NCBI GenBank assembly: GCA_022844165.1
Contig: JALHMH010000010.1
Span: 63,950-127,949, forward strand
DNA: 64,000 nucleotides
Direction: 5' to 3'
Source: Lysobacterales bacterium
GTDB lineage: Bacteria > Pseudomonadota > Gammaproteobacteria > Xanthomonadales > SZUA-5
Position 1 is the stretch's first letter, and each line of letters begins with the position of its first letter. The position numbers were made by a program, and so were the translations under genes. Under the pieces are notes generated by a model. The model ran no database searches, had not been told where the DNA came from, and saw nothing but the letters and a program-made list of their open reading frames with translations. This document shows positions 56,925 through 62,887 of this stretch, in pieces.

Positions 56925-59012
56925 CTAATAGACGTCCGCTACCGTGTTGTGCACGTTGAACTTGCCGGTCGGTGTTACGATCTCGGGGCCCTTGATGACC
57001 TTCTTCAGGCGCAGCGTGCGATCGTCGATGATGACGATCGCGCTTTCTTCTTTGGCGCCGCTCCACACCGAAAACCAGACTTCATCGCCGGCTTTGTTGA
57101 ACTCCGGTTGCACCACGCGTTTCGGACCTGGACCAAGTTTCGCCCACTCCGCGATCGGCAGCACCTTGAAGCCTCTCGCGAGATTCTGGGTATCGAACAC
57201 GGCCACCGTCTGACTAATCTTCGGATCGGGATTGAGTGGTGTGTCGACATATAAGTGCCGGGACGTCGGATGGGTTTTCACGAACAACGAACCACCACCC
57301 TGGCCCTTGAGCACTTCGACGACCTTCCAGGCATGCGCGGCATGTTTCTCTGGATCGGTGCCGATCAGCGTGATCTTCTCGTTGCCCAGGGCGCTCGTGA
57401 CCCACACCGGTCCGAAGCTTGGATGTTCGAAGTTCGCGCCGCGCCCTGGATGCGGGATTTTGTCTGCATCGACGAGGCTGACCATCTTGCGCTCCTTGGA
57501 ATCGACCACCGCGATCTTGTTCGACTGATTGGCGGCGGTGAGGAAGTAGCGATGCGTGGAATCCCAGCCGCCATCGTGCAAAAAGCGCGCTGCATTGAGC
57601 GTGGTGACCTGCAAGTTCTGGATGTCGGCGTAGTTGACGAGCAAAATGCGGCCGGTCTCTTTGACATTGACGATGAACTCCGGGTGTTCGTGGCTCGCGA
57701 CGATCGCCGCCACGCGCGGCTCGGGATGGTATTCCTGGGTATCGACCGTCGTACCGCGGGTCGACACGATGGTCATCGGCTCCAGCGTCGCACCGTCCAT
57801 GATCACGTACTGAGGCGGCCAATAGCTGCCGGCAATCGCGTATTTGTCCTCGTAGCCTTTGTACTTGCTGGTTTCGACCGAACGCGCTTCCAGTCCAACC
57901 TTGATTTCAGCGACGATCTGCGGCGGGTTCATCCACAGATCAATCAGATCGATCTTGGCATCGCGGCCGATCGTGAACACGTAGCGCCCGGAGTGCGACA
58001 TCCGCGAGATATGCACGGCGTAGCCGGTGGGCAAGATCGCGACGATATCCTTGCGATCGCCATCGATCAGCGCCACCTTGCCTGCATCGCGCAAGGTCAC
58101 CGAAAAGAAGTTGGCAATGTTGCGATCGTGCATCGGCGCTTTAGGGCGATCCGCGACCGGCACCATGACCTTCCAGGTGGCCCGCATTTCCGGCATGCCG
58201 AATTCCGGCGGATTGGGCGGATCGTGCTGCAGGAAGCGCGCCATCATGTTGACTTCTTCTTTGGTCAACTCGCCGGAGGTGCCCCAGTTCGGCATACCGG
58301 CAGGCGAGCCGAAATTGATCAGTGCTTCGAGATACGCGGTACCCTTGGCACGCGTCAAATCGGGCGTCAGCGGCTTGCCAGTGGCGCCCTTGCGCAGCAC
58401 GCCATGGCAGCCGGCGCAGCGCTCAAAGAAAATCTGCGTGGAGCGCTCGAACTCGGCTTTCGACAGCGCAGGAGCGTCGGGGTTTTGCACCATCTCGACG
58501 CCTTCGGTGGGAATCGCAGATGGCGTGCCCTGGTACTTCATCACGCCCTCCTGGGTGCCCGGGTGGCGCTCGCCTTGTGCCAGATCCTTGGAGACGCCCG
58601 TGCGCTCGCGCGCCGTCGCCACATCGTTGGCCGACACGACCTTAGGCGTATTGCCCCAACTGTGCGTCACATAGGTCATGATCGCGGCGATGTCGGCATC
58701 GGTGATGTGGCTTTGCCCAGGCATCACCGCATCGAATTTCTGTCCGTTGACCTCGATCGGGCCTTGTTTGCCGGCCAGCACGATGTCGATCGCGCGCTCG
58801 GTGTCGGCGTTCAGAAAGTCGGCACCGGCAAGCGGTGGAAACGCACCCGCCAAGCCTGCACCTTCGGGTCCGTGACAGGCAGCGCAATTGGCCAGGTAGG
58901 CCGCTTTGCCCACATCCAAGCCTTGTTTAGGAAGGCGTTCTTGAGACAAATCCTCGGCGCTGGCGGCAGCGAAAACGCTGAGCAGCACACTCAACATCGA
59001 CACGCGCAACAT
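56925..59012 (-). CDS. nirS: Cytochrome cd1 nitrite reductase with extra N-terminal cytochrome c domain
   Basis: [41 protein letters not shown]; extra NCAACH domain; RBS GGAGAG. Confidence 0.95.
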
Positions 59013-59081
59013 AAGCGCTCTCCAAAGCCACAAGCAGACAGTTGATGCGGTCATCCTCAGCTGTTGAGCCGGGGGAGCGCC

Positions 59082-59095
59082 TTGACCTGGGTCAA
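59082..59095. promoter_or_regulatory. FNR/DNR/NnrR-type box upstream of nirS
   Basis: TTGAC-CTGG-GTCAA about 70 bp from the start. Confidence 0.85.
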
Positions 59096-59165
59096 GCGAG
59101 TGCGACCGAAAGCAGTCAAAACCCGAGTGCGGTACTGCTGCCGGAGCTCGACGCGCGCGCTTTGA

Positions 59166-59239
59166 GGAGGGCCGCACTCTCGCGTAGCCTGGAGGGAGTG
59201 GTGGAACCCGCCACAGGCATCGCGCAAGCGGCGCCCTCC
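59166..59239. repeat. REP-like imperfect inverted pair
   Basis: GGAGGGCCGC...GCGGCGCCCTCC. Confidence 0.45.
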
Positions 59240-59310
59240 GCAAAGCAACCAGCTTCGCCTGCAACGCGCACGGAGCCGCTGGATCGAAAGGCATCGGGGT
59301 GCCGGTAAAA

Positions 59311-60437: not shown

Positions 60438-60558
60438 TTGAGGAACTCCCTAGATGCGACCATCTTACCGCCGGCCAGCATCGTGGTCACGTGTTTGCCG
60501 ACATCCGATTCGATCCGAATCGGCGGACGGTTTTTCACGACACTCGTCCACGCAGCGT

Positions 60559-60572
60559 TTGACCTGCATCAA
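60559..60572. promoter_or_regulatory. FNR/DNR-type box 1 upstream of the TonB receptor
   Basis: TTGAC-CTGC-ATCAA. Confidence 0.75.
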
Positions 60573-60609
60573 GCAAGCGCGATCGGCGCGTTGCGGTTCG
60601 CCGAGTCAC

Positions 60610-60623
60610 TTGACCGGGATCAA
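60610..60623. promoter_or_regulatory. FNR/DNR-type box 2 upstream of the TonB receptor
   Basis: TTGAC-CGGG-ATCAA. Confidence 0.8.
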
Positions 60624-60679
60624 TCTGGTGCACGTCCTGCTCCGTCGAGAATGGGTCGTCGGAATTCGTGAGATTGCCC

Positions 60680-62887
60680 ATGCCAAGGAGCCATTTGGCG
60701 CTCGCTGTTGCCTTGCTGATGGTCTTCCTGTCGGCACGCTCTGCGGCCGCAGGCGAAACCGCTGCGGCGCGTTGGCTGGATGGCATTGTTGTGGTCGCCA
60801 GCCGCCGTCCACAGCCGACTGCAGAAGCCATCGGCAGTTTCTCGGTGATCGATCGACGTGCCATCGATCACCTGCAAGCGCAGGACATTCGCGACCTGGT
60901 GCGTTACGAACCGGGCGTGCATGTGACTGCCGATGCCACGCGCTTTGGTCTCGATGGTTTCAACATTCGTGGCGTGCAGGGCAATCGCGTGGCGGTGCGC
61001 ATGGATGGCGTGCCGCTGCCGGATGGATTTTTGGTGGGCAGCTTTTCGAACGTCGGGCGCGACCAGCTCGATCCCGAGCTGATCGAAACAGTTGAGATAC
61101 TGCGCGGCCCGGCTTCGGCTCTATACGGCTCCGACGCACTGGGCGGCATCGTCAGCATCGTGACACGCGATCCTGCGGACCTCACGACAGGCGAGGGCAC
61201 GGGCGGTCGTATGCGTTGGTCCATCGCCAGTCGCGACGCCAGCCAACGTGCCAGCGTCGCAGCCGCGCTGCAGGGCGAAAGACATGGCGTGTTGCTGGGA
61301 CACTCCGAGCGCCGCGGACATGAACTCGGCAATCGACCGCTGGCCGCACCGAGCAGCAACCCCGCGACCAGCGATCGCAGCGCGAGCATCGGCAAATGGA
61401 CGATCGACGGCGAATCGGCGCAGCTCAAGCTCTCGCTCGAACGCTTCGCCGCGAACGTCGATACCGACGTGCGAACGCTGGTGAATGGCCCGGGGCAGTT
61501 CGCGACCACGGAACGCCTGCTGGCCGACGACGCCGAACATCGCGAGCGGGCTTCCGCTCAATGGACGCAGAGCGATCTCGGGCCGTTGGACGAGGTGCGC
61601 GTGCAAGCTCTCTGGCAGGGCTCGAAGGTGCAACAAGACACGCTGCAGCTGCGCCGTGCGGCGCCTCCGGCGGTGCGCTTCCCCAGTCTGCGCGAGCGTA
61701 GCTTCGACCTCCAGCAATGGCAGCAGGGGATCGAAGCCATCGCGCGGAAGCAAACACAGTGGGGTGGGCAGACGCAACATTGGGTATTTGGCGCGGAGCT
61801 GTTTCACACGCGCATCAAAGAACAGCGCGATGGGCGCGAGACCAATCTGAGCACTGGCATCGCGACCAACGTGATCCTCGGCGAGCGCCTGCCGGTGCGC
61901 GATTTTCCGAACTCGCGTTTGCGCAGTTTTGGCGCATTCACTGCCGCCGAGTTCTCGTTGGGTCAGTCGAACTGGGTGCTGTTGCCGGGTTTGCGATTCG
62001 ATCGATTTGCCGTCGATCCAACCGCCGATGCGCTGTTCGTTGAGGACAATCCTGGCCGCAGTGTGGTGACCAGCAAGGACTCGCGACTGACGCCGAAACT
62101 GGGTTTGCGCTACGACATTTCCGAGCGACAGAGCGCCTACGTCATGCTCGCCGAAGGTTTTCGCGCACCGCCGTTTTCCGACGTCAACATCGCGCTGGTA
62201 TTGCCGAACTTCAACTACGTGGTGTTGCCCAATGCGGATCTCAAGCCGGAACGCTCCCGGGGCCTGGAAATCGGCTGGTCGGGCAACGGCGAATATCTTG
62301 ATTGGCGCGTGGCGGCGTTTCACAACCGCTACGATAATTTGATCGAAAGTCGAGTCAACCTGGGCGTCGACGCCAGCGGCACCACCGTGTTTCAGTCGGT
62401 CAATCGCACCCGCGCACGCATCTATGGGCTGGAAGCCGGCGCACGACTTGCGTTTGCTCGCTGGGATACACGTTTGGAACCGTATGCGCTGCGCTTGTCC
62501 CTGGCCCATGCGCGCGGCGACGATCGATCGCGTCGCCTGCCATTGAACACCGTCCAGCCGGATCGCTTGTTCGTGGAATTGCAGCGCGCCGCGCAGTCTG
62601 GTTGGCCTGAGATCGCCTTGAGCGCAACTGCCGTGCGAGCGGTAACGCGCATCGACCGCAGCAGCGCCGACTTGTACGCGCCGCCCGGGCATGTTCTCTG
62701 GGATCTGCGTCTGGGCAAGACCTTTGCCGAGCGCTGGCGCGTCGATCTGGCGATCTACAACCTGGGCGACAAACGCTACTGGGATTACGCAAGCCTGCGC
62801 GGGGTCACCCGGCAGAATGTGCCCGATCCCAGCTATTTCACGGGCCCGGGTCGGAGCGCGGCACTGACCGTTGGATGGGTCTGGTGA
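60680..62887 (+). CDS. TonB-dependent heme/hemoglobin-family receptor
   Basis: VEILRGPASALYGSDALGG plug, GFRAP and NADLKPE motifs, terminal W; start 60680 or 60668. Confidence 0.9.
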   Translation: MPRSHLALAVALLMVFLSARSAAAGETAAARWLDGIVVVASRRPQPTAEAIGSFSVIDRRAIDHLQAQDIRDLVRYEPGVHVTADATRFGLDGFNIRGVQGNRVAVRMDGVPLPDGFLVGSFSNVGRDQLDPELIETVEILRGPASALYGSDALGGIVSIVTRDPADLTTGEGTGGRMRWSIASRDASQRASVAAALQGERHGVLLGHSERRGHELGNRPLAAPSSNPATSDRSASIGKWTIDGESAQLKLSLERFAANVDTDVRTLVNGPGQFATTERLLADDAEHRERASAQWTQSDLGPLDEVRVQALWQGSKVQQDTLQLRRAAPPAVRFPSLRERSFDLQQWQQGIEAIARKQTQWGGQTQHWVFGAELFHTRIKEQRDGRETNLSTGIATNVILGERLPVRDFPNSRLRSFGAFTAAEFSLGQSNWVLLPGLRFDRFAVDPTADALFVEDNPGRSVVTSKDSRLTPKLGLRYDISERQSAYVMLAEGFRAPPFSDVNIALVLPNFNYVVLPNADLKPERSRGLEIGWSGNGEYLDWRVAAFHNRYDNLIESRVNLGVDASGTTVFQSVNRTRARIYGLEAGARLAFARWDTRLEPYALRLSLAHARGDDRSRRLPLNTVQPDRLFVELQRAAQSGWPEIALSATAVRAVTRIDRSSADLYAPPGHVLWDLRLGKTFAERWRVDLAIYNLGDKRYWDYASLRGVTRQNVPDPSYFTGPGRSAALTVGWVW

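Follow-up and report, generated by a model that had tools for sequence, protein, structure and literature searches.

We found that a bacterium of the order Lysobacterales carries nirS, the gene for cytochrome cd1 nitrite reductase, beside a gene for a heme-family TonB-dependent receptor, in a genome in which no gene of the heme d1 pathway was found. Both genes lie in the window analyzed here, a 64-kb stretch of DNA (G000:C10:63950-127949) whose contig ends at base 64000 of the window; positions below are those of the window unless another contig or locus is named. nirS occupies 56925 to 59012 on the minus strand and the receptor gene occupies 60680 to 62887 on the plus strand, and the two are divergent. 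That a bearer of NirS without heme d1 genes has a neighboring, co-controlled heme-type receptor suggests that the cofactor is taken from other microbes. In our view, the receptor probably imports exogenous heme d1 into the periplasm for apo-NirS, as PqqU does for pyrroloquinoline quinone (PQQ), with the identity of the cargo being what we infer. A first-pass annotation, made from the letters of the sequence, had put forward this scavenging interpretation, and it is supported: all of the computational tests that it named gave favorable results.

A three-domain NirS in a genome without heme d1 pathway genes

The nirS open reading frame (ORF) runs from 56925 to 59327 on the minus strand. We assigned its start to the ATG at 59012, after which a signal peptide can be read from the sequence. 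Pfam, alignment to PDB structures, and the translation identify the 695-amino-acid product as a three-domain cytochrome cd1 nitrite reductase (Cytochrom_C, Cytochrome_CBB3, and Cytochrom_D1). The heme d1 beta-propeller takes up residues 298 to 690 (56943 to 58121, minus strand; PF02239, E = 2e-149), and an extra N-terminal cytochrome c domain takes up residues 28 to 145 (58578 to 58931, minus strand). This extra domain resembles the C-terminal cytochrome c of a copper nitrite reductase (3ziy, E = 2e-27) and cytochrome c552. The protein has two CxxCH motifs (C43-H47 and C199-H203), and with a cytochrome c domain bearing this motif and a d1 propeller it belongs to the cytochrome cd1 family by Pfam and PDB alignment. 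Residues 157 to 695 matched Pseudomonas aeruginosa NirS with an E value of 4e-262 in a PDB search, and the equivalents of Tyr10, His182, His327, His369, Arg156, and Arg372 of that enzyme are all identical in the alignment. The first four of these we take to be the d1 ligand or catalytic residues. Both nirS and the receptor gene are under purifying selection, with ratios of nonsynonymous to synonymous substitution (dN/dS) of 0.041 and 0.114, respectively, against a same-genus genome (G001). Judging from the identical catalytic residues and the dN/dS of 0.041, NirS looks functional and of the d1 type.

The first-pass annotation had seen no nir biosynthetic genes on either side of nirS, and annotation of the flanks bears this out: they hold a resistance-nodulation-division (RND) efflux system, a beta-lactamase-like gene, two ORFs without a family, a Uma2 gene, and a hemerythrin gene, and no nir neighbor. 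The whole-genome search that it called for found no gene of the heme d1 pathway in the assembly (4,680,174 bp, 99.97% complete). The best NirJ score in the whole genome was 56.7 bits against a cutoff of 515. The only gene with a D1 domain (PF02239) is nirS itself. For NirDL, PF17805 (AsnC_trans_reg2) had no match in the whole genome and PF22451 (the NirDL helix-turn-helix) stayed under its cutoff. tblastn searches with NirF, NirDL, NirJ, and NirN of a relative that has the classical cluster (G027) returned only nirS and one weak radical S-adenosylmethionine gene. These searches are sensitive, because with the same models the complete gene set was recovered in G027, and NirJ was detected in 64 of the 67 nirS genomes from the class-wide sample described below. 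The genome also has no NirK.

The locus can be compared with the classical nirSMCFDLGHJEN clusters of P. aeruginosa and G027. The c and d1 domains of NirS are 60 to 72% identical to the classical ones, with the same catalytic residues, and FNR/DNR-type control and neighboring nor genes are features in common. However, nirM, nirC, nirF, nirDLGH, nirJ, nirE, and nirN are all missing here, NirS has the extra fused cytochrome c, and a TonB receptor gene stands in place of the biosynthetic genes.

The receptor gene adjoins nirS in genomes without NirJ

The first-pass annotation had asked whether orthologous receptors are syntenic with nirS, especially in genomes that lack d1 synthesis. They are, in several families and orders, and this synteny is confined to genomes that lack NirJ. 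Among 39 sampled relatives, a near-full-length three-domain NirS is present in 14, and fragments of it in 4 more. The receptor gene adjoins nirS in 11 genomes of 7 families (G000, G001, G005, G006, G007, G025, G028, G029, G031, G035, and G037; in G007 only the receptor plug is visible before the contig ends), and it lies on another contig than nirS in four (G008, G016, G022, and G032). NirJ occurs in 2 of the 39 (G027 and G038), where a classical NirS is accompanied by NirF and NirN and there is no receptor homolog. In one of the linked genomes (G031, locus L025; 35% G+C, same order), the pair sits inside a nor cluster, in the order norQ, two genes, norD, receptor, nirS.

We then used the receptor to scan one genome per species, which gave 591 relatives, and analyzed the best 80 loci. 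A three-domain nirS was present at 59 of these best 80 (49 to 93% identity; two are cut by a contig end), and at 56 it lay within 420 bp. All four gene arrangements occur among the 59: receptor then nirS (26 loci), divergent (19), nirS then receptor (8), and convergent (6). The carriers bear the names Lysobacterales, Thermomonas, Arenimonas, Luteimonas, Dokdonella, Chiayiivirga, Woeseiaceae, Steroidobacteraceae, Wenzhouxiangella, Pseudidiomarina, Kangiella, and Marinicella. We searched 50 of the 59 carrier genomes whole; the others are 8 on contigs cut short and L036, which is near-identical to G001. NirJ exceeded its cutoff in none of the 50 (one weak match reached 129 bits). Of the 50, 48 have one D1-domain gene each, the exceptions being G084, which has a second one, and G071, in which nirS is split.

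One explanation of these data is that nirS is a decaying or noncatalytic leftover of a lost d1 operon and that the receptor is there by coincidence. All of the d1 genes are missing, as this would have it, and nirS is split or frameshifted in a few relatives (G020, G022, and G071). However, the dN/dS values of both genes are low, the ORFs are intact in several families, adjacency persists across the four gene arrangements, and the FNR/DNR boxes described below are conserved. We regard a leftover nirS as very improbable indeed.

As a class-wide control, we scored an even sample of 400 genomes, all at least 90% complete. D1-domain genes were present in 68 of them. Excluding the genome studied here, NirJ and at least two D1-domain genes occur in 64 of 67 nirS genomes, and a receptor homolog stands beside nirS in none of these 64 NirJ-positive genomes; the one in G469, 34% identical, lies about 2.8 Mb away. 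The three genomes without NirJ (G293, G426, and G474) each have a single long three-domain nirS, and in G293 and G474 the receptor gene is immediately upstream of it.

Three-domain NirS arose once. In the NirS tree, a single branch with a support of 99 parts 65 proteins of NirJ-less genomes from 13 classical ones; all 13 classical proteins, from NirJ-positive genomes, have one CxxCH motif, and the three-domain proteins checked have two. On a 90-tip receptor tree, linkage to nirS needs 3 changes, compared with 19.8 in shuffles (none of 500 as low). Pairwise distances of NirS and receptor are correlated (r = 0.87; Mantel test, 0 of 999), which fits co-inheritance, a pattern that shared ancestry alone could also give. 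The unlinked receptors of G008 and G016 nest in the linked group, and a near-identical relative (L041) retains a perfect FNR/DNR-type box. Nested in the tree is also a sister clade of 18 receptors unlinked to nirS, from Stenotrophomonas, Pseudoxanthomonas, Arenimonas fontis, Vulcaniibacterium, Metapseudomonas, and others. Three loci of this clade were annotated: DUF6607 is directly downstream in two (L105:12888-13823, Stenotrophomonas; L082:12225-13226, A. fontis), and the neighbors in the third are FecCD and a binding protein.

A different source of the cofactor can also be imagined: it might be made inside the cell, by a nonhomologous d1 pathway or as another tetrapyrrole, with the receptor importing something else of use in denitrification. 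The complete genome G426, which has three-domain NirS and neither NirJ nor the receptor, would fit this, as would an Alginate_exp-family porin that is the second conserved neighbor of nirS (see below) and the substitution of other residues for the PhuR-type Tyr and Arg in roughly half of the receptors associated with nirS. Substitutes for four or five enzyme steps, however, would have to exist in more than 60 genomes, the surroundings of nirS show no conserved genes for candidate enzymes, and the c and d1 domains of NirS have kept their similarity to the classical enzyme and their catalytic residues unchanged. We consider an internal source improbable.

FNR/DNR-type boxes precede nirS and the receptor gene

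The pattern TTGAYN4RTCAA occurs four times in the window (at 59082, 60559, 60610, and 63614), compared with 0.22 expected, and none of 100 shuffles reached four. The whole assembly has 38 such sites, and 4 of these fall within 4.5 kb here. One box at nirS and two boxes 51 bp apart at the receptor gene had been reported in the first-pass annotation, and all three were confirmed. The center of the nirS box, TTGACCTGGGTCAA (59082 to 59095), is 76.5 bp upstream of that gene's ATG. Of the two receptor boxes, the distal one, TTGACCTGCATCAA (60559 to 60572), is centered 114.5 bp and the proximal one, TTGACCGGGATCAA (60610 to 60623), 63.5 bp upstream of the ATG of the receptor gene; in the same-genus locus, the boxes are at -113.5 and -63.5. 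The fourth box, TTGACGATGATCAA (63614 to 63627), lies between the SirB and hemerythrin genes. The proximal receptor box may be in a class II position, because a GAGAAT hexamer begins 30.5 bp downstream of its center. A scan for sigma-70 consensus promoters found none.

These boxes are also common among the relatives. Allowing up to one mismatch and up to 250 bp upstream of the receptor gene, we found boxes at 33 of 57 linked loci (46 boxes, compared with 2.1 expected) and at 4 of 20 unlinked loci. The linked loci that lack a box include all eight in which the receptor gene follows nirS; with this order, the receptor gene would be transcribed from the nirS promoter. The boxes would respond to anoxia or nitric oxide (NO), and the genome has two regulators of the CRP/FNR family, a Dnr ortholog (C1:145-867) and a second paralog on C31.

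Fur control was looked for with a 19-bp Fur consensus. Between 60438 and 60680, the best match covered 9 of 19 positions, against a window median of 10; the test is weak, as a score of 15 of 19 is reached nowhere in the genome. This agrees with the earlier remark that the receptor gene has no clear Fur box.

The receptor resembles the heme receptor PhuR

The receptor ORF spans 60668 to 62887 on the plus strand, and we put its start at the ATG at 60680. The product, 735 amino acids with a signal peptide, was identified as a heme-family TonB-dependent receptor by Pfam (Plug, E = 1e-27; TonB barrel, E = 3e-46), NCBIfam, an AlphaFold2 (AF2) model, and Foldseek. It narrowly passes the cutoffs of two heme/hemoglobin receptor families, TIGR01786 (328.3 versus 323.75) and TIGR01785 (317.2 versus 316.85). 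The AF2 model (predicted local distance difference test score, 79) has 22 strands. By sequence, the best solved relative is PhuR of P. aeruginosa (8THE, E = 6e-76), and heme-bound PhuR was also the top Foldseek match (template modeling scores of 0.82 and 0.84, 28% identity). It is the only heme-type receptor in the genome, the next best match by tblastn being 26% identical.

Loop L7, from FRAP to NADL (residues 494 to 521; 62159 to 62242, plus strand; FRAPPFSDVNIALVLPNFNYVVLPNADL), has no His. The FRAP box is present, and the NPNL box reads NADL here and NPDL in most orthologs. In receptors of the ShuA/HemR type, the axial heme ligands are one His in the plug and one in L7. No His was found at the plug or L7 ligand position in any of the 90 aligned receptors. 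We considered the His-less FRAP-NADL loop as a marker of changed specificity and rejected it: the observation of the first-pass annotation was true, and as an argument it carries no weight, since the sister clade also lacks the His and PhuR uses a Tyr. In PhuR, Tyr529 of L7 ligates heme and Arg353 and Arg355 hold the propionates, according to the structural report (10.1101/2023.08.01.551527).

The likeness to PhuR covers the plug, the 22-strand barrel, and an FRAP/NPNL-type L7 with a Tyr at the position of Tyr529. Tyr513 of the receptor aligns with residue 542 of the PhuR chain, which is Tyr529 with an offset of 13, and Arg338 aligns with Arg355. In contrast, the equivalents of PhuR His124 and Tyr519 are Gly and Asn. 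Across the tree, 40 of 72 nirS-associated receptors retain the PhuR-type Tyr and 35 of 72 retain the Arg, and both residues are present in all 18 members of the sister clade; about half of the nirS-linked subfamily has lost the equivalents of Tyr529 and Arg355. This pattern hints at an altered binding mode in part of the nirS-associated group and does not set the window's receptor apart. We also noted residues specific to the nirS-associated group (positions 112, 141, 270, 401, 402, 489, 564, and 659), several of them in loops predicted to be extracellular; these positions were uninformative about the ligand.

PhuR also differs in its genetic setting. The window's receptor has no phuSTUVW-like genes nearby, it has FNR/DNR boxes instead of a Fur site, and it is tied to nirS. 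No ABC (ATP-binding cassette) transporter or other gene for cytoplasmic heme use lies beside it here, no ABC transporter was found beside it in the relatives examined, and the genome has no HemS. The single heme oxygenase family match in the genome is distant from the locus (C1:80213).

These comparisons bear on the possibility that the receptor is an ordinary heme b (iron or heme) importer under anaerobic control, whose linkage to nirS reflects co-regulation and not cofactor supply. Denitrification enzymes are rich in heme and iron, and the receptor passes the heme/hemoglobin family cutoffs, has PhuR as its nearest solved relative by both sequence and fold, and keeps the equivalents of PhuR Tyr529 and Arg355; in addition, one sister-clade member adjoins FecCD and a periplasmic binding protein. 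However, an ordinary importer would not be expected to lack an inner-membrane heme transporter beside it at the loci examined, HemS in the genome, and a Fur-like site in its promoter. It is also linked to nirS rather than to nor, nos, or ccm genes, and the adjacency is confined to NirJ-less genomes, with 0 of 64 NirJ-positive nirS genomes showing it. Finally, heme b import would leave the d1 source of a NirS under purifying selection unexplained. We consider heme b import with mere co-regulation unlikely.

Other features of the locus and its relatives

The space between nirS and the receptor gene had been described as REP, VapC, and Uma2 debris. This was correct for one repetitive extragenic palindromic (REP)-like hairpin (59372 to 59421; 21-nucleotide arms, 90% complementary) and for a VapC/PIN toxin gene remnant, 5' truncated and frameshifted (59504 to 59840, minus strand). 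The remnant matches NCBIfam TIGR00028 in two frames, at 59504 to 59743 and 59589 to 59840, covering profile positions 42 to 94 (E = 1e-3) and 86 to 142 (E = 1e-7), both under the cutoff; Pfam did not detect it. The Uma2-family gene (59841 to 60437, minus strand; 198 amino acids) is not debris, because its intact ORF matches the full length of the Pfam model (PF05685, E = 1e-28, profile positions 2 to 171 of 172). It lies between the divergent promoters, and the Uma2/VapC insert divides a shared divergent promoter region that is 200 to 420 bp long in most relatives. No RNA run was listed for the locus. Four DNA runs of a single study gave low-depth fragments identical to the window, one contig covering the stretch from Uma2 to the receptor start, and no form of the locus without the insert was seen in these fragments.

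On the other side of the receptor gene, a bacteriohemerythrin gene (62941 to 63357, minus strand; PF01814, NF033749) adjoins it, as it does in G001. The fourth box above belongs to this gene, and a second hemerythrin paralog (C13:6475-6864) likewise has an FNR/DNR-type box, about 280 bp upstream (C13:6199). The 3' part of a gene for a SirB-family membrane protein follows (63792 to 63998, minus strand; tblastn match to residues 71 to 139 of G001 SirB) and is cut by the contig end. Contig C1 opens with the first ~25 codons of qNorB, followed by the Dnr ortholog named above, which is 87% identical to the G001 protein. The gene order hemerythrin, SirB, qNorB, and Dnr in G001 agrees with the end of C10 and the start of C1. 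qNorB thus sits in an assembly gap, and tblastn found no other norB sequence in the assembly. In metagenome contigs, the depth at 63277 to 63778 is 100- to 300-fold, compared with about 4-fold around it, and many loose ends begin there. The high depth and the loose ends suggest that this segment is a repeat (REP-like) element common to other genomes of the sample. At the 3' side of nirS, two ORFs of 111 and 130 amino acids (56028 to 56768) have no Pfam or NCBIfam match and are not kept in the same-genus genome.

In many genomes, including the receptor-less G426, the gene immediately downstream of three-domain nirS encodes an outer-membrane beta-barrel of the Alginate_exp family (PF13372; examples are L019:6421-7629, L024:6700-7953, L034:2797-4035, and L116:7190-8422), and tblastn found matches in 22 of the 80 loci L036 to L115. 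It may be an anion or cofactor channel. In the present genome, the homolog (C2:125727-126878, 42% identical) stands apart from nirS, and its upstream region contains no FNR-type box. In Arenimonas malthae (G056), about 2 kb separates nirK from three-domain nirS (C203:9158-10060 and 11767-12945). NirK and NirS in one genome are an uncommon combination.

Discussion

Corrinoid salvage by BtuB is a familiar case in which nonproducers acquire a complex tetrapyrrole-type cofactor by TonB-dependent uptake, and the receptor has sequence similarity to BtuB in the plug region. Unlike the corrinoid, which continues to the cytoplasm through BtuCDF, the proposed cargo here would have the periplasm as its destination. 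PqqU (YncD) of Escherichia coli would be the closer analog: two reports describe TonB-dependent scavenging for a periplasmic apo-enzyme in a bacterium without the cofactor pathway (PMC12124388; 10.1101/2022.06.07.495086), and the former has PqqU importing PQQ for periplasmic apo-enzymes in nonproducers. The same three features are found here, in that the pathway is absent, the periplasmic enzyme is kept, and a dedicated transporter gene is present. However, the receptor belongs to another family (NF041535, 53 bits versus a cutoff of 1200), the cofactor is another one, and for the receptor here uptake of a cofactor is a proposed function.

The mechanism that we propose for heme d1 scavenging is as follows. 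At low oxygen or in the presence of NO, the FNR/DNR-type boxes would turn on the receptor gene. NirS would be exported and acquire its two c hemes in the periplasm, and its fused extra cytochrome c domain probably takes the part that a separate donor cytochrome plays in classical nir operons. Through the receptor, free heme d1 or a closely similar iron tetrapyrrole, set free by denitrifiers that make d1, would cross the outer membrane into the periplasm, and apo-NirS would bind it there noncovalently. According to one source (PMC3694632), d1 is bound noncovalently and NirS matures in the periplasm; the source also cites work in which the apoenzyme was reconstituted with d1. No inner-membrane transporter would be required, because apo-NirS takes the cofactor in the periplasm; d1 insertion into NirS would then be unassisted, and outer-membrane transport alone could suffice. 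Scavenging of heme d1 would account for a nirS under selection without its pathway, a tight linkage that survives rearrangement, the shared control by boxes, and the absence of an inner-membrane step.

Several observations weigh against heme d1 import. NirF and NirN assist d1 maturation in P. aeruginosa, and both are absent from these genomes. G003 has three-domain NirS and no receptor (the genome is 84% complete), and in G426, which is 100% complete and has three-domain NirS without NirJ, the receptor was not found even by a profile search. NirK is also present in 9 of 60 carrier genomes, with none in the other 51. Since three-domain NirS arose once, the carrier genomes are kin and do not count as independent events. 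The assembly breaks at this very locus, with qNorB lost in the gap, so the completeness figure makes the absence of genes from this single genome look like stronger evidence than it is. The sister clade of 18 receptors probably carries heme. As far as the sequence goes, heme b is itself a possible cargo of the window's receptor, because the family cutoffs are passed and Tyr513 and Arg338 are kept. Finally, pure cultures of the NirS-bearing Wenzhouxiangella AB-CW3 consumed nitrate with no buildup of nitrite, although they did not grow on nitrite (PMC7691419).

In our searches of the open literature, which did not extend to subscription journals or supplements, we found no published case of d1 uptake, d1 auxotrophy, or a link between nirS and a TonB receptor. 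HhuH, a "heme d1 domain" protein of a heme uptake cluster in Stenotrophomonas SY1, appears in one report (PMC11784086).

Heme d1 is viewed as being made by every nirS denitrifier for itself through a multigene pathway. We hold it to be an evenly balanced question whether there is a widespread guild that is unable to make heme d1 and relies on d1 leaked by its neighbors, by way of a portable module of two genes, for a three-domain NirS sufficient in itself and an outer-membrane importer dedicated to d1. Its proposed members would include Lysobacterales, Woeseiaceae, Steroidobacteraceae, Wenzhouxiangellaceae, Idiomarinaceae, Kangiella, and Marinicella. The case is testable: named isolates carry the pair without NirK, among them Pseudidiomarina donghaiensis CGMCC 1.7284, Marinicella marina S1101, and Wenzhouxiangella sediminis XDB06, d1 can be extracted from classical NirS, and the reconstitution of apo-NirS is established chemistry. 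If import of heme d1 is true, TonB-dependent transporters would gain a new substrate, and bacteria abundant in sediment, soil, and water would depend on cross-feeding to reduce nitrite. Counts of nirS in environmental surveys would then overstate autonomous denitrification capacity, and marker surveys would need to be reinterpreted. Heme d1 would be a traded public good comparable to B12 or PQQ.

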